64,000 nt of DNA from Candidatus Enterousia sp. (GCA_045114635.1 JBGUKY010000007.1:4628-68627), one strand, 5' to 3'; counted from the stretch's first letter, positions 12,067-61,780 are shown. Made by a program: numbers and translations. Notes: generated from the letters alone by a model not told the origin.

Positions 12067-12143
12067 CGGGGTGTAGCTCAGTCTGGTAGAGTACTTGGTT
12101 TGGGACCAAGGTGTCGAAGGTTCGAATCCTTTCGCCCCGACCA
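12067..12143 (+). tRNA. tRNA-Pro (anticodon UGG), CCA encoded
   Basis: Hand-folded cloverleaf. Acceptor CGGGGTG/CGCCCCG, D stem GCTC/GAGT, anticodon stem CTTGG/CCAAG with loop TTTGGGA, T arm GAAGG-TTCGAAT-CCTTT, then discriminator A and CCA. Confidence 0.9.
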
Positions 12144-12260
12144 GAGAGTTCAAACCGCTCATTAAGAGCGGTTTTTATTTTGTTTTTCAATACTTACACC
12201 GAGTTCGAACTAATCAATTTTGAAAAGTGCTATTTTTAGCCTATTTTCGAACTTTCTAAG
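12144..12260 (+). repeat. Junction repeat copy 1 (core hairpin + right arm only)
   Basis: gagagTTCAAACCGCTCattaAGAGCGGTTTTT...aaTACTTACACCGAGTTCGAAc...GTGCTATTTTTAGCCTATTTTCGAACTTT aligns with 13337-13447 and 14436-14545. Confidence 0.8.
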
Positions 12261-12319
12261 AAAAAAGGTTCGAAACCATATCCAAAATCTATAAAATTTT
12301 TGATTTTTCAAACTTTTTA

Positions 12320-12328
12320 TGCTACAAT
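12320..12328 (+). promoter_or_regulatory. Extended -10 promoter element (TGcTACAAT) ahead of cassette gene 1
   Basis: actttttaTGCTACAAT is homologous to actttttaTGATATAAT at 14541-14557, ahead of cassette gene 3. Confidence 0.45.
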
Positions 12329-12359
12329 TTCCGCATATAATAATAAAAAGGATTGTAAA

Positions 12360-13223
12360 ATGACTATGATAGCACATGGTATTTTGGCTTTGAATAAATA
12401 TTTAAAAGACAAAGAAGTAAAAGAATTGGAGAACAAATCAACAGCTGAATTGTCTGAAAAAGAAAGACAAGCCCTTGCAGACAAATTAGAAAAAGCATGG
12501 AAAAGTCAGGACGAAGCCAACCGTAAAATGCATAAATTAGAACGTGCCGAACGAAAAATAGATATATTCGCTGATGTTTTATCGCTACGAAAAAGCGGAG
12601 GTCCATTGGCTCTTACTAGAACCGTCACAGGTGTGGTTGTTGCCATACCATTTGTTGTTGGTGCATTTGCATATACTGGTGTAGAAGAAGCCGCAAAAAA
12701 GATAAAAGAAGTAAAAACAAAAAAGGAAGAACAAAAACAAGCAGCGGCTCTTAAAGCACAAGAAGAAGCGAAGCGTCTTGAAGAAGAAACAAAGCGTATC
12801 GCACAAGAAAACGCCGAAAAAGCAGCAGAATCTGCTGAAATGACAGAAATAGATTTGTTAAAAAGAGTTATTTCTAATGCAGATATAGTAAGAACGCGCA
12901 GTGTTGATATACCAACAGATAAAAATGCTATTGTTGCTGGACTTGTTGACGAACGTGGTCAAATTGCGGAATTTGCTTCAGAACACGGAAGAATGGTTTT
13001 CTTTTTTGATAATAACCCAGAAGCAAAAATTGTTAACGCATTTTTTGTAAATCCAGAAACTGGAAATTTCGAAGAAATAGCAACAGTCAAATCTGTGCGC
13101 GGTAGAAAGCAGATAGTGACATTGATAAATAACCAACTTGCTATCGACAGACAAAAAAAGAAAGAACATGAAGAAGCACAAATGAGAAACGCACAAATTA
13201 TGGGTGCAATTAAACAAAAGTAA
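12360..13223 (+). CDS. Hypothetical coiled-coil membrane protein (cassette 1 cargo)
   Basis: ATG 12360 is preceded by aaaaagga. It encodes a Lys/Glu coiled coil, one TM segment (VTGVVVAIPFVVGAFAYTGV), a second coiled coil and an unrecognised C-terminal domain. Confidence 0.65.
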   Translation: MTMIAHGILALNKYLKDKEVKELENKSTAELSEKERQALADKLEKAWKSQDEANRKMHKLERAERKIDIFADVLSLRKSGGPLALTRTVTGVVVAIPFVVGAFAYTGVEEAAKKIKEVKTKKEEQKQAAALKAQEEAKRLEEETKRIAQENAEKAAESAEMTEIDLLKRVISNADIVRTRSVDIPTDKNAIVAGLVDERGQIAEFASEHGRMVFFFDNNPEAKIVNAFFVNPETGNFEEIATVKSVRGRKQIVTLINNQLAIDRQKKKEHEEAQMRNAQIMGAIKQK

Positions 13224-13230
13224 TATCATA

Positions 13231-13257
13231 AAACCGTCTAAACAGACGGTTTTTTTA
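13231..13257 (+). terminator. Intrinsic terminator of cassette gene 1
   Basis: aaACCGTCTaaacAGACGGTttttttt. Confidence 0.75.
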
Positions 13258-13264
13258 TATATTT

Positions 13265-13450
13265 TTTCACATCTTCAATCTTTCGCCCTATCTTAATAAT
13301 ATCGGCTCGAGAATTGTTCACTAAGCACGACCACGAAATTCAAACCGCTCGTTAAGAGCGGTTTTTTATTTATTTTCTAATACTTACACTGAGTTCGAGA
13401 GTTGTGTTTTTGAAAAATGCTATTTTTGGCCTACTTTTGAACTTTTTTAA
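13265..13450 (+). repeat. Junction repeat copy 2 (left arm + core hairpin + right arm)
   Basis: Left arm: ttcacatCTTCAATCtttCGCcCtATCTtAAtAATATCGGcTCGAGAATTG..TAAGCACGACCACGAAATTCAAACCGCTCgttaAGAGCGGTTTTTT. Right arm: TACTTACACTGAGTTCGAGAGTTGTGTTTTTGAAAAATGCTATTTTTGGCCTACTTTTGAACTTTT. Confidence 0.85.
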
Positions 13451-13471
13451 TTATTTTTATTGTATTTATAA

Positions 13472-14287
13472 TTAATCTTTTTGTTTTTGGGCTGCTAAAA
13501 TATTAGTAATATATTCTTGATCCAAAGTTTCTCGTGAACTGTTTGTCAGATTATATTCGCTAATACTCATACGAATTTTCTTTAAGTCAAGCCCTTTACC
13601 ATATTTTGATTCTAACGCTTTTGATACAACCACCAATAAGTCGTAGACACCGTCTACTATCTTATTAGATTTTCCATAATAATGATATTCGTATTCTTTG
13701 GTTTTACCGTCAAAATTATTCAACAAATCTTCAAGAGCCCAATAATAGGAAGTATTTGTACCTTTATTGTGTATAATTTCTGCAAAATCACTACAACACA
13801 CCCCCATGCTTAACACAAGTTCAAGAAACTTTGCTGGATTTTCATTAATATTCTCTAAGGCATTATCAAAATCTTTACCAAAAAATTTATGTATTTTTTC
13901 CGCAAAATCACACGCTAGTTTTCCATATGCAGCTTTTTCTAATACCTGCTGATACATTTTAAATGCTTCTTGTACATCCTTATCTGGTAGTTCTATTTTA
14001 GAAGTATTCTGTAGAGTGCTTTTTTTTACAAAATTTTCGGCTATTTGATTTTTATGCAAATCAAGTGCAAAACTATGTAAAACTAAATATCTTGCTAATC
14101 TTTTATTATTTTTATCAGAATTATCTCCATTATTAACAGTTTGTAATGTCTTAATTTGTCCCTGCAATAACCGGTTTTGTGCTTCTAATCTTTGTTTTTC
14201 AATTTGCCACTGTTTTCTTTCTTCTTCCATACGACGTCTTTCTTCAGCCAGCTCTTTAGATGAATTAAACATGTCTTTTAATCCCAT
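13472..14287 (-). CDS. Hypothetical protein, N-terminal coiled coil (cassette 2 cargo, inverted relative to the flanking repeats)
   Basis: ATG 14287 is preceded by taggag. Its own TTGATA-17-TAAAAT promoter lies upstream on the minus strand. EERRRMEEERKQWQIEKQRLEAQNRLLQ is the coiled coil, followed by an unrecognised helical domain. Confidence 0.65.
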   Translation of the reverse strand: MGLKDMFNSSKELAEERRRMEEERKQWQIEKQRLEAQNRLLQGQIKTLQTVNNGDNSDKNNKRLARYLVLHSFALDLHKNQIAENFVKKSTLQNTSKIELPDKDVQEAFKMYQQVLEKAAYGKLACDFAEKIHKFFGKDFDNALENINENPAKFLELVLSMGVCCSDFAEIIHNKGTNTSYYWALEDLLNNFDGKTKEYEYHYYGKSNKIVDGVYDLLVVVSKALESKYGKGLDLKKIRMSISEYNLTNSSRETLDQEYITNILAAQKQKD

Positions 14288-14360
14288 AACACTACTCCTA
14301 TGAATTAAAGTACATTTGTATTTTATCACAAAACAGATCTATTATCAATAACAGCCAAAA

Positions 14361-14548
14361 TTATCTTCACCTCTTCAATCTCTCGCTCAATCTCAACAAT
14401 ATCGGTTCGAGAATTGCTAATTAAGCACGACCAGAAAATTCAAAACCGCCACTAAGGGCGGTTTTTCTTTTGTTTTCCGATACTTACGCCGAGTTCGAGA
14501 GTTGTGTTTTTAGAAAACGCTATTTTTATACCTGTTTCGAACTTTTTA
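14361..14548 (+). repeat. Junction repeat copy 3 (left arm + core hairpin + right arm)
   Basis: ttcacctCTTCAATCtctCGCtCaATCTcAAcAATATCGGtTCGAGAATTG..TAAGCACGACCAGAAAATTCAAAACCGCCactaAGGGCGGTTTTT..TACTTACGCCGAGTTCGAGAGTTGTGTTTTTAGAAAACGCTATTTTTATACCTGTTTCGAACTTTT. Confidence 0.85.
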
Positions 14549-14557
14549 TGATATAAT
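14549..14557 (+). promoter_or_regulatory. Extended -10 promoter element (TGaTATAAT) ahead of the helicase gene
   Basis: It lies at the end of the right arm, 10 nt before ATG 14568. Confidence 0.45.
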
Positions 14558-14567
14558 AATCAACGAT

Positions 14568-16958
14568 ATGGATACAACAGATATAAAATTTTTACGGGCT
14601 GGTATTGCCAGACAGATAAAACAACCTGAAATGCTGCAAATGTTGCGCGGGAAACAAACAGAAGCGTTTCATGCATTAGTATCTGACAGCTTTACAGACG
14701 AACAATTATCACACAGTTATTTTAAACTGCCTACTGGATTTGGTAAGACGGTTATGTTTGCAACAATGGCACGTGCATATTTTGACGCGATTAAAGCATC
14801 TGGTATAAAACACCGACCAAAAATTATTATTATTGTCCCAAGACTATCATTGATAAATCAAACCAAAGAGAAATTGGATAAATTCGCTGACCTGGTTGCT
14901 ACCGAATACAGTGGTCGTAAAAAAGACAACAAAAGCGATATTATTATTACAACTTATAATTCTTTGGATAAATTATTTGGTATTATAGATTTTAATGATG
15001 TTGGTTTAATCTTTGCTGATGAAGCCCATCATATACTTGGTGAAAAGATTTCAAAACGATTGGCTTTTTATAATGAATATGTCCCTGTCATTGGTTTTAC
15101 AGCAACACCTGAATATGAAGCAAATCGTGCTGTTGCTGATATGTTGACCACAGAAATATTCGCAATGAATATTCCAGAAAGCATAGAAGCAAATATATTA
15201 AGCCCTGTGAAAAATGTTCTGTATCGTTCAAGCATAGTTTGTGATTTGTCTGAAGTGTCTGCATCAACAAATGGCGAATTTAATTACGACGAAATTACAA
15301 CTAAAATCAGTCCTGATACTTTGGCAACAGAAATTGCGCGTATTTATGCCGAAGGTGTTGATGAAGATACCGGTATCGAATTTAAGTCTTTGAAAGCAAT
15401 AATAAATTGTCCAAATGCCAAAATTGCTGATATTCAAGCAGCAAAAATAAACGAATTTATGGGACACGACGTTGCAATTTCATTACACAAAGTTGGAATT
15501 ACAGATAAAGAATTTAATCGTTTGCAACAAGACTTTATTGATGGGAAATATACTGTTGCTTGTCAGGTTGGAACCATGACCGAAGGTTTTGACGATGTGA
15601 CTGTTTCTATGTGTATAAATTACCCAACACGATCAAGGGTAAAGGCTGAACAAACCGCCGGTCGTGCAATACGTATTGATGATAATAACCCAAGCAAAAT
15701 TGCTTTTGTAGTAGATACAATATTCCAAAGCAAACCAAACGAAGATGCAAAAGACATTTTATATACTGCCCATAATGCACAACAAGTGTTATTCAAAGAT
15801 ATTGTTGGCAGGATGGTTTTGTTTCCAAAAGATTTTCAGAAACAAAAAATGCAATCCAAAACTCCAAGAACAAGCAACGAAAAAAATGTTGAATTTATAG
15901 ATTTTGACCTGATAACAGATAATACGACTTTAATTGAATTAAACAATATTGCAAAAGAACGTATTGCAAACGAAACAATTGAAGAAAAAACGGACGAATG
16001 GCAATCTGCTTTGGATTTAATAAATGACAAAACATTTTCTATGGGCGATCGTCGAATGATATCACAAAAATTACAAATATTGCAGTATGAAATGCCAAAT
16101 TTTATTCAAATGAAAAAATCACAAACACAAGTAAGTTTATGTTTACATCGTGATGGTCGCGAAATGTTTCTGGAAAAATGTGGTTTTAAAGATTATCCAC
16201 CAAAAACGGAAGAATGGCTTTCTGCAAATGATTTGGTTGCAGATGAAACATTTCCGATGTTTAATAAGAACATAATATTAAGAAAAATGGAAGAATTTCA
16301 ATCACAAATGCCAGAATTTATACAAATACGGAGATCTCTAACAAAAAACGCTTTGTGTTTACATCGTGATGGTCGCAAAATGTTTCTGGAAAAATATGGT
16401 TTTAAAGATTATCCACCAAAGACCGAAGAATGGCTTTCTGTGCAAGAACTGGTAATGGACAAAAGTTTTCCTATGGCTTTTTCAAAAAAAATTTTAAAGG
16501 CATTAGAAGATTTGCAATCACAAATGCCGGAATTTATACAAATACGGAGATCTCTAACAAAAAACGCTTTGTGTTTACATCGTGATGGTCGCAAAATGTT
16601 TCTGGGAAAATATGGTTTTAAAGATTATCCGCCAAAGACAGAAGACTGGTTTTCCTCTGGTGAGTTAAGAGACGATAAAACTTTTCCTATTGGAAAAGTG
16701 CAAACTATAAAGAACTTTTTAATTGAATTACAACCGGAAATGCCAGAACTTATACAAATACGAAAACCTAAAATGGGACCAGCCGGTATATGTTTACATC
16801 GTGATGGACGCGAAGAATTTTTAAGACGTGTACAAGAAAGCAAAACAAAATCTATAAGAAAAGCAGCAAAAGTTGTTTCTGCTGGTGATGAGATGGCCCA
16901 AACTACTAAAACCATAAAATCTACCGCGCCAAAGAACATTTCTATAAAAAGTTTATAA
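14568..16958 (+). CDS. SF2 (DEAH, ResIII-type) helicase with four C-terminal 72-aa tandem repeats (cassette 3 cargo)
   Basis: 796 aa. Motif I is LPTGFGKT, motif II FADEAHH, motif III GFTATP, motif V TMTEGFD and motif VI QTAGRAIR. The C-terminal half is four copies of EEW.S...L..D..FP...........Q..MPEFIQIR......LCLHRDGR.MFL.KYGFKDYPPKT. Confidence 0.85.
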   Translation: MDTTDIKFLRAGIARQIKQPEMLQMLRGKQTEAFHALVSDSFTDEQLSHSYFKLPTGFGKTVMFATMARAYFDAIKASGIKHRPKIIIIVPRLSLINQTKEKLDKFADLVATEYSGRKKDNKSDIIITTYNSLDKLFGIIDFNDVGLIFADEAHHILGEKISKRLAFYNEYVPVIGFTATPEYEANRAVADMLTTEIFAMNIPESIEANILSPVKNVLYRSSIVCDLSEVSASTNGEFNYDEITTKISPDTLATEIARIYAEGVDEDTGIEFKSLKAIINCPNAKIADIQAAKINEFMGHDVAISLHKVGITDKEFNRLQQDFIDGKYTVACQVGTMTEGFDDVTVSMCINYPTRSRVKAEQTAGRAIRIDDNNPSKIAFVVDTIFQSKPNEDAKDILYTAHNAQQVLFKDIVGRMVLFPKDFQKQKMQSKTPRTSNEKNVEFIDFDLITDNTTLIELNNIAKERIANETIEEKTDEWQSALDLINDKTFSMGDRRMISQKLQILQYEMPNFIQMKKSQTQVSLCLHRDGREMFLEKCGFKDYPPKTEEWLSANDLVADETFPMFNKNIILRKMEEFQSQMPEFIQIRRSLTKNALCLHRDGRKMFLEKYGFKDYPPKTEEWLSVQELVMDKSFPMAFSKKILKALEDLQSQMPEFIQIRRSLTKNALCLHRDGRKMFLGKYGFKDYPPKTEDWFSSGELRDDKTFPIGKVQTIKNFLIELQPEMPELIQIRKPKMGPAGICLHRDGREEFLRRVQESKTKSIRKAAKVVSAGDEMAQTTKTIKSTAPKNISIKSL
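15993..16835 (+). repeat. In-frame 216-bp tandem repeat x4 inside the helicase gene
   Basis: The Trp codon of the EEW motif recurs at 15999, 16215, 16431 and 16647, an exact 216-nt period. Copies 2 and 3 (16299-16440 vs 16515-16656) differ at only a handful of positions. Confidence 0.9.
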
Positions 16959-16966
16959 AACTTTAA

Positions 16967-17078
16967 TTTTATCTTTCACTTCTTCAATTTCGCACCCTAT
17001 TTTAAGAATCTCAGTTCGCAAATTGCCATCCCAGCACGACCACGAAATTCAAAACCGCCATTAAAGGCGGTTTTTCTT
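16967..17078 (+). repeat. Junction repeat copy 4 (left arm + core hairpin only; array end)
   Basis: tttcacttCTTCAATttCGCaCCctATtTtAAgAATcTCaGTTCGcaAATTG..CAGCACGACCACGAAATTCAAAACCGCCattaAAGGCGGTTTTT. No right arm follows. Confidence 0.8.
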
Positions 17079-17260
17079 TTGTCATATTATATTCTCCTAC
17101 ATTTATGCCACAATTATATCACGCTTATAATCATTAACAAAACAATTTATAAAAATAATCGCACAAAAATTGTTCATTCTGATAATTATTTGGCCCTTGT
17201 TTTTTTGTGTTTTTCTGAAATAATATATGGCAGGTATTTTTTCATAACTCAGGAGAACAC

Positions 17261-43137: not shown

Positions 43138-43211
43138 TGGGGCATAGTTTAATGGTAGAACATCGGACTCTGACTCCGCTAGTGTTGGTTCGAATCCAGC
43201 TGCCCCAACCA
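43138..43211 (+). tRNA. tRNA-Gln (anticodon CUG), CCA encoded
   Basis: Hand fold. Acceptor TGGGGCA/TGCCCCA (U1-A72 as in bacterial tRNA-Gln), anticodon loop CTCTGAC, T arm GTTGG-TTCGAAT-CCAGC, then A and CCA. Confidence 0.85.
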
Positions 43212-43220
43212 AAAATTCAG

Positions 43221-43247
43221 CCACCCATTTTGGGTGGTTTAATTTTT
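43221..43247 (+). terminator. Intrinsic terminator after tRNA-Gln
   Basis: CCACCCattttGGGTGGtttaattttt. Confidence 0.7.
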
Positions 43248-43360
43248 GCTTTGCGAGCGATGGTTGAAACATGCAACAAAGTTGCGTGGTTCGACTATGA
43301 GTAAGCGAGAACGAACATAGTGAAGTTCGAGCGCTAACGAATGCGGCGCAGACACGAAGT

Positions 43361-43423
43361 GTCGAGCCAATCCAGCTGCCTTTTATTATTGTGTATCGAG
43401 GACTCAGCTGCCCCAATAAAAAT
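43361..43423 (+). repeat. Two decayed copies of the tRNA-Gln 3' end (T-arm/acceptor)
   Basis: gtcgagCCAATCCAGCTGCC and gtatcgaggaCTCAGCTGCCCCAAtAAAAATT, compared with the tRNA ggTTCGAATCCAGCTGCCCCAACCAAAAATT at 43188-43218. Confidence 0.7.
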
Positions 43424-55848: not shown

Positions 55849-56003
55849 CTTTTCCCCCAAATTAAATATATACCGTTATTTCCTTTGTATAGAAATCTTA
55901 GTGCTTTTGCACAATTAAGGCAAGATGATATTTTATAAAAAACATTGACAAATTATAGATTTTGTATTAAATATATACACATAATATAATAAGAGGATGA
56001 AAA

Positions 56004-56495
56004 ATGTCTAGAACGAATACCGATAGTTTTGGTGATTTTTTGTTGGTAATGATAGTGGTAGTAATACCTCTTTTATATGTTAGCATATCCCCTATCGTCG
56101 ATAGCAAAAAATACGCCAGGAAGCAAACTGAAATCGCATCGAATTTTGCACACTATAACGCGGTAAATTCTGTTGATACAATAAATTTTGATGGCACACC
56201 AATTGATGTAAAGGCCGCACATAAAGATTCTGCAACAGCCATTAAACAAATGCGCAAAGCCACACGTCGTTTTCATAAAGATGACTGTTTCGACTATTTT
56301 AATGATTCTCCTAAACTCATTGTCTCATATGACTCGACAGATACAGCAAAAACAAATCCACATTACAGCTGGACAAAATGGCGTTTAAATATAGATAAGG
56401 CGATGGAAGATTCGACTTTTGCTGCATCTTACAACAAATATTACAAATCAATACAGCAACTTGAAATCGCACGTCGCCAGGGCAAGTTAAAATAA
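56004..56495 (+). CDS. Membrane-anchored hypothetical protein (paralog 1)
   Basis: 163 aa with N-terminal TM FLLVMIVVVIPLLYVSI. It shares SVDTINFDG..ID.K.A.KDSA...KQM and DS.FAA.Y......I.QLEIARRQ with the next gene. Confidence 0.65.
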   Translation: MSRTNTDSFGDFLLVMIVVVIPLLYVSISPIVDSKKYARKQTEIASNFAHYNAVNSVDTINFDGTPIDVKAAHKDSATAIKQMRKATRRFHKDDCFDYFNDSPKLIVSYDSTDTAKTNPHYSWTKWRLNIDKAMEDSTFAASYNKYYKSIQQLEIARRQGKLK

Positions 56496-56721
56496 AAAGG
56501 CACAAAAAAAGAGAAGCATTTTTGATTATTATACAAATCTTGATAGCGAAGAAAATTTGGAACAATTATGTTATTGATTTTTGTGGTGACAATTATTTCC
56601 AGCAAAGTAATTGATGAAAACAACCAAGAAAAATACATTATCAATCGACATTCAAACAAATGTTGACAATTATAAATTTTTGTATTACATTTTAAACACA
56701 ATAAAATAAAAGGATAAAATC

Positions 56722-57273
56722 ATGAGTTATTCAAGAGATGACGAATCGGGTGAAACATTGGGTTGTTTAGTATTTGCTGCAATCATAGTTATTCCTACGT
56801 CGATATGGGCTTTAATAGGTGATGGCGAAAAACAGATTAAACGTGACGCGCAAACAAAACCAGTATTAATGAAAGCACACGAACAAGCAGTTGCTTCTGT
56901 TGACACAATAAATTACAACGATGTTATAATTGATACAAAAAATGCGCGCAAAGATTCTGCACGCACAACAAAACAAATGTATAAAATTATGGATATCATA
57001 TATGAAAACAGAACAAAACGCTTTTTTGATTATGTCCAAGATTCTATTCCTATAAAATCAAATTATAGCAGAACAATAAGTACATACGTTGATTCTGTTA
57101 GCCATGATACAGTTCGTGTTGTGTGGTCTCGTCACAAAACAATAAGCGGAGCATACCCACAATTTAATTTGAATAAAGCACTAAAAGATTCAGCATTTGC
57201 TGCAACATATTCTCAATACTGCGAAGCGATTAAACAATTGGAAATTGCACGTCGTCAACAAAATGTAAAATAA
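56722..57273 (+). CDS. Membrane-anchored hypothetical protein (paralog 2)
   Basis: 183 aa with TM CLVFAAIIVIPTSIWALI and the same conserved blocks as 56004-56495. Confidence 0.65.
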   Translation: MSYSRDDESGETLGCLVFAAIIVIPTSIWALIGDGEKQIKRDAQTKPVLMKAHEQAVASVDTINYNDVIIDTKNARKDSARTTKQMYKIMDIIYENRTKRFFDYVQDSIPIKSNYSRTISTYVDSVSHDTVRVVWSRHKTISGAYPQFNLNKALKDSAFAATYSQYCEAIKQLEIARRQQNVK

Positions 57274-57300
57274 AAAAACTGGGTAAAAACCCAGTTTTTA
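57272..57300. terminator. Bidirectional intrinsic terminator
   Basis: aaaaaaACTGGGTaaaaACCCAGTtttta. Confidence 0.8.
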
Positions 57301-58761
57301 TTTTTTTGATTTTTTATCAGAATCTTTTTTCTCTGATTTTTCAGATTTGACTTCTTCTTTGGTTTCGACTTCTTCTTCGACTTTTTCGATGTTCTTTTTA
57401 CCAATTTTTGACAGTGCACGCACCATATCCATTGCACGTTGTAATTGATAATCACGTTCATCTTTTTCTTCATCAGACAAACTTAAATAATCTTCTTCTT
57501 CGTCATCATCAGATTTGCTAGATTTCTTAGAATCTTTCTTTTTCGATTTATTATCCTTTTTGTTGGATGCATCGTTTTTCAAAGAATTATTGAAAGTTGC
57601 TTCTGTGAACAAGGCTTCTTTCTTTTCTAATGTTTCAACTTTACTTTGTAAAACTTCTATATCCGGCGTAATACCTTCGTTTTGAATTGAACGACCACTT
57701 GGAGTATAATAACGTGCAATAGTTATATGTATTGCGGAACCATCACCCAAAGGTTTTTGTTGTTGTACAGAACCTTTGCCGAAACTTTGTGACCCCATTA
57801 CAATCGCACGACCATTATCTTGTAATGCACCAGCAACAATTTCAGATGCAGATGCAGACCCATGATTTATCAAAACAACTATTGGTTTTCCATTTATTAA
57901 ATCACCAGATTTTGCGAACATTCTTTCTATATCGGCTTTTTCTTTGCCACGCGTCGAAACAATTTCACCACCATCCAAAAACGCATCCGACATTTCAACC
58001 GCTGCTGTCAAATATCCGCCAGGGTTGTTACGCAAATCAAGAACATATCCGGCAACATTTTTCTTTTCCAAATCTTTCAATGCATCTTTTAATTCTTTGG
58101 TCGTAGTTGCACCAAAATCAGAAACGCGCAAATAACCTATCTTTGGTAATTTTTCATCATCCTTTGCAGCCGCATCAGATTTTTCACTGAACTTGATAGA
58201 TTTTACTTTGATAATAGCACGTTTAAGTGTCATTACTTTTGGTTCGTTGCCATCATGAACCACTGTTAATTTAACAGTTGTTCCTGGTTTACCCTTCATC
58301 TTTTTAACAGCTTGATTCAAGTTCATATCAAAAACTTGTTCACCGTCAATATGTGTTATGTAATCACCCGCTTCTATACCCGCCTTGGCCGCAGGAGTAT
58401 CATCAATCGGTGAAATAACACGGATAGCACCCTTGTCACTGGTTATCTGGATACCAAGGCCACCAAATTCGCCATGAGATTTGTCATTGAATTCTTTAAA
58501 ATCGTCCGCAGACAAATAAGAAGAATGTGGATCTAGTGCCCCCAACATACCATTCATCGCACCTTCTAACATTTTGCGTTCGTCTGCTTCTTCGACAAAT
58601 TTGTCGCGTGCTGTTTCAAAAACCAGCGCCAATTTCTTCAATTCACTGTATATTTCTTCATCAGTCAAATGAACGATTGGTTCTTCTTTTTTCTGCTTCT
58701 TCGGTGCAGCATCACAAACAAACGGTGTTATCAAAGCAATCAACAACAATATCTTTTTCAT
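57298..58761 (-). CDS. ctpA: C-terminal processing peptidase (S41) with long Lys/Glu/Asp/Ser-rich C-terminal extension
   Basis: ATG 58761 gives the signal peptide MKKILLLIALITPFVCDA. PDZ domain GLGIQI...PAAKAGIEAGD, catalytic region NHGSASASEI and YYTPSGRSIQNEGITPD. The tail runs from NDASNKKDNKSKKKD to the end. Confidence 0.88.
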   Translation of the reverse strand: MKKILLLIALITPFVCDAAPKKQKKEEPIVHLTDEEIYSELKKLALVFETARDKFVEEADERKMLEGAMNGMLGALDPHSSYLSADDFKEFNDKSHGEFGGLGIQITSDKGAIRVISPIDDTPAAKAGIEAGDYITHIDGEQVFDMNLNQAVKKMKGKPGTTVKLTVVHDGNEPKVMTLKRAIIKVKSIKFSEKSDAAAKDDEKLPKIGYLRVSDFGATTTKELKDALKDLEKKNVAGYVLDLRNNPGGYLTAAVEMSDAFLDGGEIVSTRGKEKADIERMFAKSGDLINGKPIVVLINHGSASASEIVAGALQDNGRAIVMGSQSFGKGSVQQQKPLGDGSAIHITIARYYTPSGRSIQNEGITPDIEVLQSKVETLEKKEALFTEATFNNSLKNDASNKKDNKSKKKDSKKSSKSDDDEEEDYLSLSDEEKDERDYQLQRAMDMVRALSKIGKKNIEKVEEEVETKEEVKSEKSEKKDSDKKSKK

Positions 58762-58850
58762 TAAAAAATCCCTTTCCTTTTTGGACAAGCATAATAAAAA
58801 ATGAAAGTTTGTGCAACACGATTTTTCTTTATTATTTCCATTTAAAAATA

Positions 58851-58879
58851 TTGACAAATATATATTTTTGTATTATATA
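58851..58879 (+). promoter_or_regulatory. Sigma-70-type promoter for the Fic-fold gene
   Basis: TTGACA-17 nt-TATATA, about 25 nt before ATG 58904. Confidence 0.5.
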
Positions 58880-58903
58880 TTGTATTAAAAACAAGGAAAA
58901 AAC

Positions 58904-59662
58904 ATGACAAAACACAAAAGAACACCTGAAACAACTTACACACCAAAGGCTTTATCTGTCCAAGAAGCCGTTGAATTAAACAAAAAAGTTATTTCAAGCA
59001 AGTTATCTGGTTCAAACATCAAAAGATTAAACAATCTTAATTGGTTGCGTCATGAAATATCATGGACAGAACCACATATATTGTTTTATTTGCCCCAAAA
59101 TCAACAAGATCCATTTTTCGACTACAGTTGCACAAAAGGACTTGGTTCTGCATATGATTACATTACAAATAAAGATAACAAAGAAATAACATCCGCATCA
59201 ATCCGCGATATACATTTTTTAATCGCAAGTGAAACTAATATACGCGCAGGAACATATCGCGAAAATCCAAAAATCTTGGAAATAACCGTCAACGGATCTC
59301 GTGTACATGCACCTGATTATACAATGGTTTCTCAACTTGTTGAAAATGCAATTTTTGAATGGAAACACAGCACCAAACCAGCACCTTTGCGCGCTTTTGA
59401 TTTACATTACAATCTTATCATTATACAACCTTTTGAAGACTATAACAAAAGACTTTCAAGAATGGTTATGAATTGGGCATTGGTTCAATGTGGTTATCGT
59501 CCTATTGTATTTAACAGAAAAAGTGATAAAGAAAATTATAGAAAAGCGATCACAAGCATGGCCAAAGGCGATGCAAAATCTTATTACAGATATATGTATA
59601 ATACGATGAGAGCATCCCAAGAACAAATTATAACCCAATTAAAAAGTTCCAACATAAAATAA
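58904..59662 (+). CDS. Fic/DOC-fold protein with degenerate active-site motif
   Basis: IRDIHFLI...AGTYRE and AFDLHYNLIIIQPFEDYNKRLSRMVMNW align with the Fic core, but HPFx[DE]GNGRxxR is replaced by QPFEDYNKRLSR. Confidence 0.7.
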   Translation: MTKHKRTPETTYTPKALSVQEAVELNKKVISSKLSGSNIKRLNNLNWLRHEISWTEPHILFYLPQNQQDPFFDYSCTKGLGSAYDYITNKDNKEITSASIRDIHFLIASETNIRAGTYRENPKILEITVNGSRVHAPDYTMVSQLVENAIFEWKHSTKPAPLRAFDLHYNLIIIQPFEDYNKRLSRMVMNWALVQCGYRPIVFNRKSDKENYRKAITSMAKGDAKSYYRYMYNTMRASQEQIITQLKSSNIK

Positions 59663-59690
59663 AAAATGCCGTTTTGGCATTTTTTATTTT
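59661..59690. terminator. Bidirectional intrinsic terminator
   Basis: aaaaaATGCCgttttGGCATtttttatttt. Confidence 0.75.
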
Positions 59691-60604
59691 ATCAATTGTT
59701 TTTCTATGTACTTTATTCTTGCTATTAACTCTTTCATAAATGCAATCTTTTCAATATTATTATTTTTTGTCTTTTCAGATTGCGGATTTAATCTTAAATC
59801 GTCCCCGGCCTTTGTGAAACGTTTTAACAAAACAGTTATCTTGCGATACTTCATAATATTTTGTAATTCTGGACTGTTTGGAGCATAAATAAGATATTTG
59901 TCTTCATCATGCAATTTGAAATATTCTTCATATATTGGTTCACAAATATCCAAATCGACAGCCAAAGGCGAAAAAATATCGCGAAAGATAAAGTTATAAT
60001 TTGCTTCAGCAAAATCGATCAAATATAACTTGCTTGCTTCTGCATCATATAAAACATTACCAGAATTCAAATCACAGTGAGACCAAGCTTTTCTTGTCTC
60101 ATATTCGAAATCTTGAACACGTTCTATGACTTTTGATATATACTTTACACTGCTCAAATCGAACCATTTTGGCATTTTGTTACCGATAATATTCTGCAAT
60201 TTTTGCATTTTTAATTCGGTGGACATCCTGTGTAAAGTTTCTTCTTTGACAGGTTTTAATTCATTCATATCAACCAAGAAATGCGCAAGGCTTGTAACAA
60301 TTTCATAACGTTGACGGCCAGTTAAAGTCTGATACAATTCTGAAGTCAAAGGAACCCCAGGCGCACGTTCTTCCAATAATTGATATTCATCATCTTTAAT
60401 ATGCAACATATAAGGGATATTATATACAGGGTTATTGACTGCATTAATTTCATCAATAACATCTTTGGTTCTGTGCTGTTTAGCCAACCATTTATCCTTT
60501 TCAGCCTGTGAAAATTCTGGCAAAGGACGCTTCATAACAAGCCCCTCGCCAAAATCGGCGATATAGGTTTCACGTCCATGAGGTAACTTTATTTCTGTTT
60601 TCAT
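59684..60604 (-). CDS. Protein-kinase-like fold phosphotransferase (APH/choline-kinase type)
   Basis: The catalytic loop is SHCDLNSGNVLYD (HxDxxxxN), followed by LIDFAEANY (DFx). ATG 60604 gives MKTEIKLPHG. Confidence 0.7.
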   Translation of the reverse strand: MKTEIKLPHGRETYIADFGEGLVMKRPLPEFSQAEKDKWLAKQHRTKDVIDEINAVNNPVYNIPYMLHIKDDEYQLLEERAPGVPLTSELYQTLTGRQRYEIVTSLAHFLVDMNELKPVKEETLHRMSTELKMQKLQNIIGNKMPKWFDLSSVKYISKVIERVQDFEYETRKAWSHCDLNSGNVLYDAEASKLYLIDFAEANYNFIFRDIFSPLAVDLDICEPIYEEYFKLHDEDKYLIYAPNSPELQNIMKYRKITVLLKRFTKAGDDLRLNPQSEKTKNNNIEKIAFMKELIARIKYIEKQLIK

Positions 60605-60611
60605 GCTATAT

Positions 60612-60639
60612 ATTATAGACATATTTTTTATTTTGTCAA
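60612..60639 (-). promoter_or_regulatory. Sigma-70-type promoter placed for a near-leaderless kinase-like mRNA
   Basis: Minus strand TTGACA-16 nt-TATAAT. Only 7 nt separate the -10 element from ATG 60604. Confidence 0.45.
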
Positions 60640-60697
60640 CCATTTTATAAAAAATCCAAGATTTACATTTTTCTATTGTTTTGGTAAAATAAACACA

Positions 60698-61780
60698 ATG
60701 ATAAAAAATAAAGTTATTTTGTGTGGTTTTTGCTTATGGCTTGGCACCCTGCCCGTATTTAGCGCCAATACTGAATTGGCCAAGATTCAAAACCAAATAA
60801 AACAGACAGAACTTCAAAACAAAAAAATTGAACAGCAATTACAAACATCCAACAAAGACGTAGAAAAAACAAAAAAACAACTGGTAAAAACAGCGGATCG
60901 TGTAAGTTCTTTGGAAGAACAACGTGGCGCACTGATTAAACGCATTACAGAATTGGATAAACAACGCGATAAAATAAATATGGAACTTGCCCAAAGTTAT
61001 AACGGCATAACCGATGCAACTGCCAGTATGTTATTTATTGCTGCAAATCCTAATTTCGATGCACAGACTATGCATGATTATGTTTTAACCTCGGTTATGT
61101 TATCTGCAATGTCTGAAAAATTTGATGATCAGATAATGGATGCAACACAAAAATTAAAAGAATTGGACAAGATTCACGATCAACGCATAGTTGAAAAAGA
61201 AAAATTAGATCGCAGTGCAAAAAAATATACAAATGAAAAAAACGAATTGAACAAATTATTAAAAACGCGTTCTGCACAAAATGAAAAATTAAAAAGTCAA
61301 CAAATTGAATTACAAGACAAATTAAAACAATTGTCAGCACGCGCTAAAAACATTTCTGAATTATCTGCTGGCGTGGGATCTTCAAAAATGTCGGGCGACG
61401 CACGTTTTTCAAAACGGAAATTAAATGTTCCAGTGCGTGGAAAACTTGTTGTGCGCTATGGTGAAAAGACGGCACTTGGACTAAAATCAGACGGATGGCG
61501 CATACGCACACGCGGTGACGCTTTGGTTATGGCGCCTGCCGATGGCACAGTAAAATTTGCTGACAGTTTTCGCGGTTTTGGCAAGGTTGTCATTATGTCA
61601 CATAAAAATGGTTATAACACTGTTATGACAAATATGGGGTCCATTGATGCAATTGTTGGCCAAGAGGTTTTAGCAGGCGAACCTATCGGTCGAATGAATG
61701 AAAACCGTCCAGAAATGTATTTGGAAGTTAGACGCGGTGATAAATCTATCGATCCTGCAAGTTTGTTTAATGAACCATAA
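60698..61780 (+). CDS. envC: EnvC-like murein hydrolase activator (coiled coil + degenerate LytM domain)
   Basis: Signal peptide, then a long Q/K/E coiled coil. The C-terminal LytM fold (GTVKFADSFRGFGKVVIMSH, GEPIGRM) lacks the HxxxD/HxH metal ligands. Confidence 0.6.
   Translation: MIKNKVILCGFCLWLGTLPVFSANTELAKIQNQIKQTELQNKKIEQQLQTSNKDVEKTKKQLVKTADRVSSLEEQRGALIKRITELDKQRDKINMELAQSYNGITDATASMLFIAANPNFDAQTMHDYVLTSVMLSAMSEKFDDQIMDATQKLKELDKIHDQRIVEKEKLDRSAKKYTNEKNELNKLLKTRSAQNEKLKSQQIELQDKLKQLSARAKNISELSAGVGSSKMSGDARFSKRKLNVPVRGKLVVRYGEKTALGLKSDGWRIRTRGDALVMAPADGTVKFADSFRGFGKVVIMSHKNGYNTVMTNMGSIDAIVGQEVLAGEPIGRMNENRPEMYLEVRRGDKSIDPASLFNEP

Follow-up and report, generated by a model that had tools for sequence, protein, structure and literature searches.

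Organization of the array

The stretch analyzed here comprises 64,000 nucleotides (nt) of DNA from Candidatus Enterousia sp. (GCA_045114635.1 JBGUKY010000007.1:4628-68627), hereafter the window, in which a gene for tRNA-Pro(TGG) is followed on its 3' side by four copies of a composite unit that set apart three single-gene intervals. An earlier note, made from the sequence alone, had described the recurring unit and read the locus as a tandem array of integrase-less cassettes divided by junctions resembling attachment (att) sites; the four copies were recovered here by repeat search, MAFFT alignment and nhmmer. A complete copy, or joint, consists of a ~77-nt LEFT arm that ends in GCACGACCA, a core of the form NN-AAATTCAAA, a hairpin with a 9-bp G+C-rich stem and a T-run, and a ~85-nt RIGHT arm. 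Joint 1 is composed of tRNA-core-hairpin-RIGHT, joints 2 and 3 of LEFT-core-hairpin-RIGHT, and joint 4 of LEFT-core-hairpin; the proposed layout B-O-P' / P-O-P' / P-O-P' / P-O-B', in which related circular elements have integrated successively at one site, holds. The features are, in window coordinates:

12067..12143, +, tRNA-Pro(TGG), the array anchor (ARAGORN; Rfam tRNA model, 65 bits)
12144..12175, +, joint 1, post-tRNA core GAGAGTTCAAA and terminator hairpin at 12152-12174 (alignment; terminator scan)
12177..12261, +, RIGHT arm copy 1, with the inverted 9-mers GAGTTCGAA...TTCGAACTT (nhmmer E 1e-21; alignment of 23 RIGHT arms)
12262-12330, extension of RIGHT arm copy 1, with TTGATT-17-TGcTACAAT at 12300-12328 (promoter scan)
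12360..13223, +, cassette 1 gene, 287-amino-acid (aa) coiled-coil protein with one membrane-spanning segment
13257..13333, +, LEFT arm copy 2, core GCACGACCA at 13325-13333 (nhmmer match 13257-13344, E 3e-25)
13334..13364, +, joint 2, core CGAAATTCAAA and hairpin at 13342-13364 (pattern and terminator scans)
13368..13449, +, RIGHT arm copy 2 (nhmmer E 5e-21)
13472..14287, -, cassette 2 gene, inverted 271-aa orphan
14358..14433, +, LEFT arm copy 3, core at 14425-14433 (nhmmer match 14358-14444)
14434..14465, +, joint 3, core and hairpin at 14442-14465 (pattern and terminator scans)
14467..14557, +, RIGHT arm copy 3, with TGATATAAT at 14549-14557 (nhmmer match 14467-14551)
14568..16958, +, cassette 3 gene, 796-aa superfamily 2 (SF2) helicase (ResIII/DEAD/Helicase_C, phrog_16)
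16966..17042, +, LEFT arm copy 4, core at 17034-17042 (nhmmer match 16966-17053)
17043..17086, +, joint 4, core, hairpin at 17051-17074 and the first ~12 nt of a RIGHT-type T-run

The nhmmer arm profiles matched three LEFT copies (E 3e-25 to 3e-23) and three RIGHT copies (about E 5e-21 to 8e-23), with no additional copy of either arm anywhere in the 64 kb. The core GCACGACCA-NN-AAATTCAAA occurs 3 times against a chance expectation of 0.23, all four joint hairpins score as intrinsic terminators, and the region holds 15 terminator-like sites where 3.4 are expected. A GTTCGA motif, which the earlier note had seen to recur in the arms, is ~30-fold enriched in the joints (8 of the 24 window copies lie within 712 nt). 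Over 12-18 kb the G+C content dips from ~0.375 to ~0.33, below that of the flanks, and the likeness of joint 4 to the other joints stops ~12 nt beyond its hairpin, which is the distal edge of the array. The post-tRNA core of joint 1 is also found 3' of tRNA-Pro in relatives, and the only tRNA-Pro sequence that recurs at every joint is its terminal 6 nt, CGACCA (12138-12143).

Each interval holds a single gene, as previously noted, and none of the three is a recombinase. The cassette 1 protein has no Pfam family and only a weak LeoBC match in PADLOC, and its gene is followed by a terminator of its own at 13230-13253. The helicase of cassette 3 ends in four tandem 72-aa repeats without a Pfam match (window 15986-16850; 216-nt period, 66-93% nucleotide identity); its homologues in two loci of relatives, L006 and L029, are ~75 aa longer, and the number of repeats may differ. 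The promoter scan places a promoter-like site ahead of each cassette gene, including one on the reverse strand for the inverted gene (TTGATA-17-TGnTAAAAT, 14348-14320). A shared promoter supplied by the RIGHT arm had been proposed for the two forward cassettes. Both of the sequences concerned are present (TGCTACAAT at 12320-12328 and TGATATAAT at 14549-14557), but the cassettes have no promoter in common; each has its own gene-proximal one, and one cassette is inverted.

Distribution and cargo in relatives

An exact scan with AGCACGACCANNAAATTCAAA over contigs, using one genome per species, returned 29 loci, 21 of them true LEFT arms from 19 metagenome-assembled genomes (MAGs) and the rest chance matches within unrelated genes. 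These 19 MAGs, from rumen and gut, are labelled Candidatus Enterousia or uncultured (alpha)proteobacteria; Enterousia is placed in the order Rs-D84, with genomes <1 Mb (PMC12306168). The joint unit is present in metagenomes as well. tRNA-Pro(TGG) lies 0.5-4.4 kb upstream on the same strand in 14 loci. With those of the window included, the arm profiles recover 32 LEFT and 23 full-length RIGHT copies, all on the tRNA strand, and the arrays everywhere follow one grammar, in which the tRNA is succeeded by RIGHT, cargo and LEFT in one to four repeats.

Content and order of the tRNA-Pro locus vary from one relative to another; the earlier note had proposed to compare this locus across strains. Cargo that recurs is found as follows:

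Helicase: third in the window; first protein cassette in L006, L019 and L029
271-aa orphan: second in the window; sole cassette in L016 (80% aa identity)
ADP-ribosylglycohydrolase: L003, L010 and L021
Outer membrane protein (OMP) beta-barrel protein: second in L003 and L019

Further cargo includes P-loop kinases, an AAA_5/DUF7192 pair, a xylose-isomerase-like TIM barrel, an isochorismatase and many orphans, and on a more distant contig the genes around such a joint encode NADAR, AP_endonuc_2, AAA_28, acyltransferase, peptidase S51 and RhuM proteins. In total, at least 25 cargo families are found over ~20 arrays, mostly seen once each, and the genes that flank the arrays are housekeeping genes that differ from species to species. 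A simple local segmental duplication, which the earlier note had named as an explanation that would undo its own, is ruled out because the helicase unit stands third in the window but first in L006, L019 and L029, the same joints being found with differing cargo in 19 species-level MAGs. The locus is best explained as a three-unit member of a clade-wide family of tRNA-tail cassette arrays in Enterousia-like gut Alphaproteobacteria (order Rs-D84).

A phage or plasmid origin was rejected. IMG/VR holds no arm or core pattern, its three matches being chance ones inside unrelated genes; in PLSDB only the tRNA was matched, with no arm or core copy on plasmids; and the phage relatives of the helicase are only ~27% identical to it.

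Unit boundaries and copies of the tRNA tail

The boundary of a unit can be located by comparing the helicase unit where it follows a LEFT arm (joint 3 of the window) with the same unit where it follows the tRNA (L019). Homology between the two begins precisely at CGACCA and runs at ~90% identity through the core, hairpin and RIGHT arm into the gene. The T-run behind each hairpin tracks the downstream and not the upstream content, being TTTTTCTTTTGTTTTC ahead of RIGHT arms and TTTTAATTTT ahead of non-coding units. Since the T-run predicts what follows the hairpin, the hairpin belongs to its 3' unit and the boundary lies at the tail. The stems vary among copies and are fully compensated (CCGCTC/GAGCGG, CCACCAC/GTGGTGG, CCGTCGC/GCGGCGG, CCGACC/GGTCGG, TCGGC/GCCGA); it is the structure of the hairpin rather than its sequence that is kept, as for a terminator.

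The arrays of relatives also contain units of 150-230 nt without an open reading frame (ORF), here named X1-X5 (L012, L028, L018, L022, L023 and others; e.g. L028:1302-1812). Each starts ~10 nt beyond a hairpin, and in several the first nucleotides are the tRNA-Pro 3' end in inverted form (GGGGCGAAAGGAT). In most, the final nucleotides are an exact direct copy of the tRNA-Pro 3' end ((AATCCTT)TCGCCCCGACCA), with core and hairpin following, whereas X1 closes with a shorter copy, ...CCTTTCGCCC; such exact tail copies comprise 11-19 nt of the anchoring tRNA. X2 and X4 fold far better than shuffled sequences (z -6.0 and -3.7). The non-coding units match no Rfam family, only tRNAs being found at the gathering threshold and at E<=1, and the idea that array-adjacent units form a two-piece transfer-messenger RNA (tmRNA) was not borne out by ARAGORN or Rfam.

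The tail that is copied is that of the local tRNA. Non-coding units after tRNA-Pro end in AATCCTTTCGCCCCGACCA, and those at tRNA-Gln in L061 and L064 end in the tRNA-Gln tail of that genome, AATCCGTGTACCCCAACCA. The window itself holds a second, gene-less tRNA-tail array at tRNA-Gln(CTG) (43138-43420): a hairpin at 43222-43240 is followed by a ~130-nt non-coding unit, similar to X1 of relatives, that ends in AATCCAGCTGCC, a copy of the 3' end of its own tRNA, and an X2-like tail and CAGCTGCCCCAA follow (43250-43416). In arrays with a tRNA-Gln core flavour (in L036 and L037 read from the core, the anchoring tRNA itself not being seen), LEFT arms end in GCACAACCA or GCACAAC before AGATAGACAA-like cores, an end that differs from GCACGACCA by one base, the same base that separates the two tRNA tails. 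In related metagenome contigs, exact 12-nt tail copies are also found 3' of tRNA-Thr, -Glu, -Val and -Pro(GGG). Both empty and occupied sites are observed, in a contrast between different species: in L071 (19240-19330) tRNA-Gln and a hairpin are followed directly by a DUF1015 gene, whereas in L061 and L064 (L064:926-1960) a non-coding unit and RIGHT-cassette-LEFT stand between tRNA-Gln and the same DUF1015 gene.

The two arms of the joint

The earlier note had likened the end of the LEFT arm to the T-arm and acceptor half of the tRNA, a likeness that did not survive comparison with shuffled sequence. What LEFT arm and tRNA have in common is limited to CGACCA at the end, the core that follows the tRNA and the GTTCGA motif. 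We weighed the possibility that the joints are decayed tandem duplicates of tRNA-Pro, its terminator and a downstream promoter, with the LEFT arm as a pseudo-tRNA. The repeat search does pair tRNA and LEFT arm in register over 182 nt (62% identity), and a T-loop-like GGTTCGAG lies within the arm. That identity, however, comes from the hairpin and the RIGHT arm, which both stretches have in common. Over the 70 nt ahead of the tail, the alignment to the tRNA is at the level of shuffled sequence, a search of the LEFT arms with the Rfam tRNA model gives no match at E<=1, and the arm shows codon-periodic conservation on its reverse strand and a variant with an in-frame 21-nt insertion. We regard decay from a tRNA as very improbable, and rejected it for the LEFT arm itself on the shuffle-level alignment and the missing Rfam tRNA match. 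As a known RNA of another kind the arm was likewise rejected, Rfam (gathering threshold and E<=1) finding only tRNAs.

What the LEFT arm holds is a reverse-strand micro-ORF, with the following segments in the window:

13339->13241, -, micro-ORF of LEFT arm copy 2
14439->14329, -, micro-ORF of LEFT arm copy 3
17048->16956, -, micro-ORF of LEFT arm copy 4

In 26 of 31 copies its frame, which is set by TGG TCG TGC (complementary to GCACGACCA), stays open for 25 codons; of the five other frames, four nearly always contain stops. Conservation is codon-periodic over >30 copies and also in diverged lineages. LEFT column entropies at codon positions 1, 2 and 3 of the reverse frame are 15.8, 11.4 and 20.9, half of the single-base codon differences are synonymous, and the peptide reads WSC[LW]..N[SL]R[TA][DE]I[IVL][KQ]IGREIEEVK. 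A 7-codon insertion that keeps the frame (21 nt; RTI[DN]Y[NA]DLI) is present in four copies, three of them Enterousia-like and one distant, and in the insertion variants of L013 and L037 the C-terminus KDKLGL.NL and the position of the stop are conserved too. By its share of synonymous differences, the plus-strand frame with the same third codon positions scores just as high. In the insertion variants, stops interrupt this plus frame (by inspection) while the reverse frame stays open and conserved; on this ground we prefer the reverse strand and rejected the plus frame. Enterousia copies have a TGA ahead of the frame and no conserved ATG; GTG, TTG or ATT codons often stand a few codons in.

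Both a word-indexed search of 5.8 billion proteins and an exhaustive HMMER search of 1.84 billion representatives returned, as matches to the micro-ORF, ORF calls of 35-108 aa at such joints, among them a diverged group with the pattern WLC.C.SR[AT]EL[LV]EIG[QR]EI. The view that the micro-ORF is a piece of a larger protein was rejected, since these short calls are all that either search gives, save, in the HMMER search, the unexamined P0017 (1345 aa, eleven short matches). We regard the micro-ORF as real and under protein-level constraint, but unexplained.

The RIGHT arm was rejected as coding, having stops in all frames and no 3-nt periodicity. It shows block-wise conservation at the DNA level and an inverted pair, GAGTTCGA...TTCGAACT, ~45 nt apart and adjoining the cassette promoter; the two arms are not inverted copies of one another. 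Some RIGHT arms (window 12262-12300; in relatives, e.g. L022, L023 and L006) are prolonged by a conserved block, AAGAAAAAAGGTT(C/A)GAAA..., and these extended arms have a further GTTCGAA-like site ahead of the promoter.

Recombinases

With lambda Int, P4 Int, XerC and PinE as phmmer queries against stop-to-stop ORFs of >=60 aa, no tyrosine recombinase homologue was found in the window or in L001-L037, and no serine recombinase in the window, in agreement with the earlier statement that the 64 kb lack a recombinase gene; L001-L037 contain a single serine recombinase, at L026, DDE and HUH enzymes not being specifically searched. Pfam analysis of 33 array-adjacent proteins of relatives' loci likewise gave no integrase besides the L026 enzyme, and the ~270 kb of array loci, the remaining host genome being outside the search, contain no autonomous element with a cognate integrase.

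The L026 protein is a resolvase/invertase-type serine recombinase of 208 aa (PF00239 and HTH_7; L026:884-1510) whose gene abuts the distal end of a tRNA-Pro array. A metagenome scan with this protein gave 80 rumen and gut loci. In L061 and L064 the resolvase gene ends 144 nt upstream of tRNA-Gln and its array, and in L048, L051, L063 and L085 it lies <=2 kb from array elements or tail copies; elsewhere it is more distant or unlinked. On its upstream side, the gene neighbourhood is conserved within subsets of loci; on the downstream side it is highly variable. This small resolvase-type enzyme is the only candidate recombinase seen, and we treat it as no more than a candidate.

The enzyme, of some 200 aa, is widespread in rumen and gut contigs, and among the resolvase loci (L043-L122) the gene is sometimes duplicated head to head (L052, L053). 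An ORF of ~195 aa with weak similarity to XerC occurs near the resolvase in L044, L069 and L103, directly downstream of it in L044 and L069.

Mosaic arms and divergence of the cassettes

When the arm halves were clustered at 85% identity, the gene-proximal halves were seen to travel with the cargo: the four helicase units have one LEFT-distal type, both OMP units have one RIGHT-distal type, and the gene-proximal half of RIGHT arm copy 3 is specific to the helicase cassette in four species. The core-proximal halves are shuffled, and LEFT arm copy 4 of the window is a hybrid in which a helicase-type gene-proximal half is joined to a core-proximal half of another subtype. Because core-proximal halves are shuffled and gene-proximal ones linked to the cargo, homologous exchange or gene conversion between joints is clearly at work.

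A rival explanation invokes such exchange alone, without any site-specific enzyme. The ~190-bp joints (75-90% similar) would then be portable terminator-promoter modules, between which RecA-type exchange would delete, duplicate, circularize and re-insert units, and incoming DNA, from transformation or gene-transfer agents, would swap units by double crossover. The mosaic arms, with breakpoints within both LEFT and RIGHT, fit this explanation, as do the lack of a linked recombinase in ~20 arrays, the fixed orientation, which homologous exchange preserves too, and a cassette divergence close to that of core genes. It leaves unexplained, however, the origin of the first joints, the local-tRNA tail at every unit end, including 19-nt exact copies at tRNA-Gln and tRNA-Pro, the one-base difference among LEFT cores in step with the anchoring tRNA, the sharp start of homology at CGACCA between contexts, and the presence of arrays at several different tRNAs. 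That homologous recombination is the only process at work we consider possible but less likely.

The divergence of the cargo can be set against that of core genes. Between the window and L019, aa identity is 79% for the helicase and 78% for the core gene RfbC, whereas between the window and L016 it is 80% for the 271-aa orphan and 50% for the flanking core gene. A further explanation would be that the arrays are a fixed, old chromosomal structure, the joints serving as regulatory insulators (terminator, operator, promoter and small peptide gene) that were spread once by ancestral duplication, so that species differences would reflect loss and rearrangement with no ongoing capture. The helicase values agree with this, the RIGHT-arm inverted repeats beside promoters resemble operator sites, and the array is identical in the sole other assembly of the strain. 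The 271-aa cassette, by contrast, is far closer to its L016 counterpart than the flanking gene is, and a fixed structure sits poorly with the many cargo families that are mostly singletons, with arrays at different tRNAs having matching tails, with empty and occupied tRNA-Gln sites beside the same flank, and with an array G+C content below that of the flanks. We regard this explanation as unlikely.

A proposed model of cassette accretion at tRNA tails

Taken as a whole, the earlier interpretation is supported in part. Its layout holds, content and order vary, no tyrosine or serine recombinase homologue was found in the 64 kb, and the start of homology at CGACCA and the empty and occupied tRNA-Gln sites speak for it; of the outcomes that the earlier note had named as refuting, none of those open to a check was seen. 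The tRNA-like LEFT arm and the shared promoter do not stand. For the mechanism, we find the balance about even for a model in which miniature att-flanked cassettes were added in tandem at the tRNA tail through an unlinked recombinase acting in trans, with homologous exchange overlaid.

In the architecture observed, the terminator hairpin ends the tRNA or the preceding unit, and the non-coding RIGHT arm, with its two inverted GAGTTCGA/TTCGAACT sites, leads into the cassette-specific promoter. The cargo is one gene in either orientation or, in relatives, also a structured non-coding unit of 150-230 nt, and the 3' part of the unit consists of the LEFT arm with its micro-ORF, then the copy of the tRNA 3' tail (CGACCA) and a short core. 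In the model, units would enter as small circles on which the LEFT-core-hairpin-RIGHT joint forms an attP-like site, and crossover at the tRNA tail would push older units distally. A recombinase encoded elsewhere in the genome may do this work, possibly to the present day, and homologous recombination or gene conversion between the ~190-bp joints would reshuffle arm halves and delete or reorder units.

Several observations weigh against this model. The mosaic arm halves fit homologous recombination and not a single sharp crossover, and a helicase divergence equal to that of core genes (L019) fits old vertical inheritance as well as transfer. LEFT-type units share merely 6 nt with the tRNA. No recombinase could be assigned to the arrays: the window lacks the resolvase, which adjoins array elements in only ~7 of ~50 long loci, and LEFT-peptide matches occur in only 5 of the 80 resolvase loci. 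Viral contigs (IMG/VR) and plasmids (PLSDB) yielded neither arm nor core copies. Finally, the sole other assembly of the strain is 100% identical over 6.35 kb and gives no sign of current mobility; exact-protein look-ups with three flanking genes gave only contigs of the same sample (SRR25030098), and a look-up with the helicase gave none.

More tentatively, the arrays may represent a distinct cassette-capture system of reduced-genome gut Alphaproteobacteria, in which a tRNA 3' tail (that of tRNA-Pro, of tRNA-Gln and perhaps of others) would take the part of attI and the ~190-bp joint that of attC, served by an unlinked host recombinase. This enzyme, possibly the small resolvase, would insert and excise single-gene circles as well as non-coding, RNA-like circles ended by a tRNA tail, and the reverse-strand micro-ORF would be a functional part of the unit, with a role in directionality, regulation or retention.

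Comparison with known systems

Integrons encode an IntI-type tyrosine recombinase next to attI, and attC sites alone form clusters of attC sites lacking integron-integrases (CALINs). These attC sites are imperfect inverted repeats (R''-L''...L'-R') that fold as single strands, and the cassettes are promoterless, co-oriented and expressed from the promoter Pc. The present arrays resemble integrons and CALINs in their mostly single-gene cassettes of varied function, in a recurring separator that looks like a recombination site, in the occurrence of the same cassette at different positions in different hosts, and in arrays without a neighbouring integrase. Unlike integrons, they are anchored by a tRNA tail and have neither IntI nor attI: phmmer finds no tyrosine recombinase in the window or L001-L037, the only palindrome of the joint is the 9-bp G+C-rich stem with its T-run, and cassette 2 is inverted, each unit having its own promoter-like site and terminator. 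The integron-like logic invoked by the earlier note describes the functional outline, but none of the defining integron features is present here.

Xer-dependent modules consist of one or few genes between short sites and are moved by an unlinked recombinase; the pdif sites that bound some of them are 28-bp XerC/XerD sites in alternating orientation, borne on plasmids. The pdif modules of Acinetobacter and the integrative mobile elements exploiting Xer (IMEX) thus combine small modules with an unlinked recombinase, as is proposed here (context in PMC9771954). Unlike pdif sites, the joints described here are direct, ~190 bp long and tRNA-anchored, and no dif-like dyad was recognized in the core, by eye only and with no formal scan run.

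The closest described cases are the tandem islands at tRNA and tmRNA genes, including cis-mobilizable elements (CIMEs) (PMC3146451; reviews PMC5704250, PMC4383910). The ssrA tandem islands of Dehalococcoides have serine recombinases, and 15 islands are without an integration module (PMC3146451). As in tandem islands at tRNA genes, the array has an intact tRNA gene at one end and 3'-end copies as direct repeats between units, CGACCA and the post-tRNA core being present at all four joints behind the intact tRNA, and it consists of several units in tandem with strain- or species-specific content. As in CIMEs, where some units of tandem islands have no integration module and presumably depend on a helper, the three att-flanked units of the window, one gene each, are without recombination and transfer genes. 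However, known tandem islands measure 5-100 kb, against 0.15-2.6 kb and usually one gene for the present units, and their arrays include autonomous members with the integrase next to attL, whereas ~20 arrays here are without an integrase. Moreover, the protein cassettes share just 6 nt of tRNA-derived repeat, and a conserved ~190-bp bipartite joint with micro-ORF and promoter separates the units.

The tycheposons of Prochlorococcus have a tyrosine or large serine recombinase, usually a replication module, and a size of ~10-20 kb (10.1101/2020.12.28.424599). The arrays resemble them in belonging to streamlined genomes without classical transfer systems, in placing cargo beside tRNA genes, and in the partial tRNA copies between successive insertions and remnants. 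They are unlike them in the arm-hairpin-arm joint and the micro-ORF, neither of which is described for tycheposons (10.1101/2020.12.28.424599), and in the window the units measure 1.1-2.6 kb with one gene each, the helicase having no integrase or primase beside it. Overall, the arrays differ from known systems in their scale, in the bipartite joint with its micro-ORF, in the 6-nt identity with the tRNA, and in consistently having no linked integrase.

Implications

Bacteria of the order Rs-D84, Enterousia among them, combine genomes <1 Mb (PMC12306168) with no obvious means of gene exchange. If the model is correct, recombinase-less stacking of accessory genes at tRNA tails would explain the flexible gene pool of these streamlined gut symbionts, and the integron concept would gain another kind of site and possibly another class of enzyme. 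The joints offer a ready marker for mining the accessory genes of the clade from metagenomes, and the micro-ORF and the non-coding units ended by a tRNA tail are conserved elements that await explanation.

A second low-G+C stretch

A further dip in G+C content, at window 56000-60700 (0.337), was considered as part of the array and rejected as unrelated, there being no arm or core copies in it; this stretch encodes two orphans, an S41 (CtpA-like) peptidase, a Fic-domain protein and an APH-like kinase.

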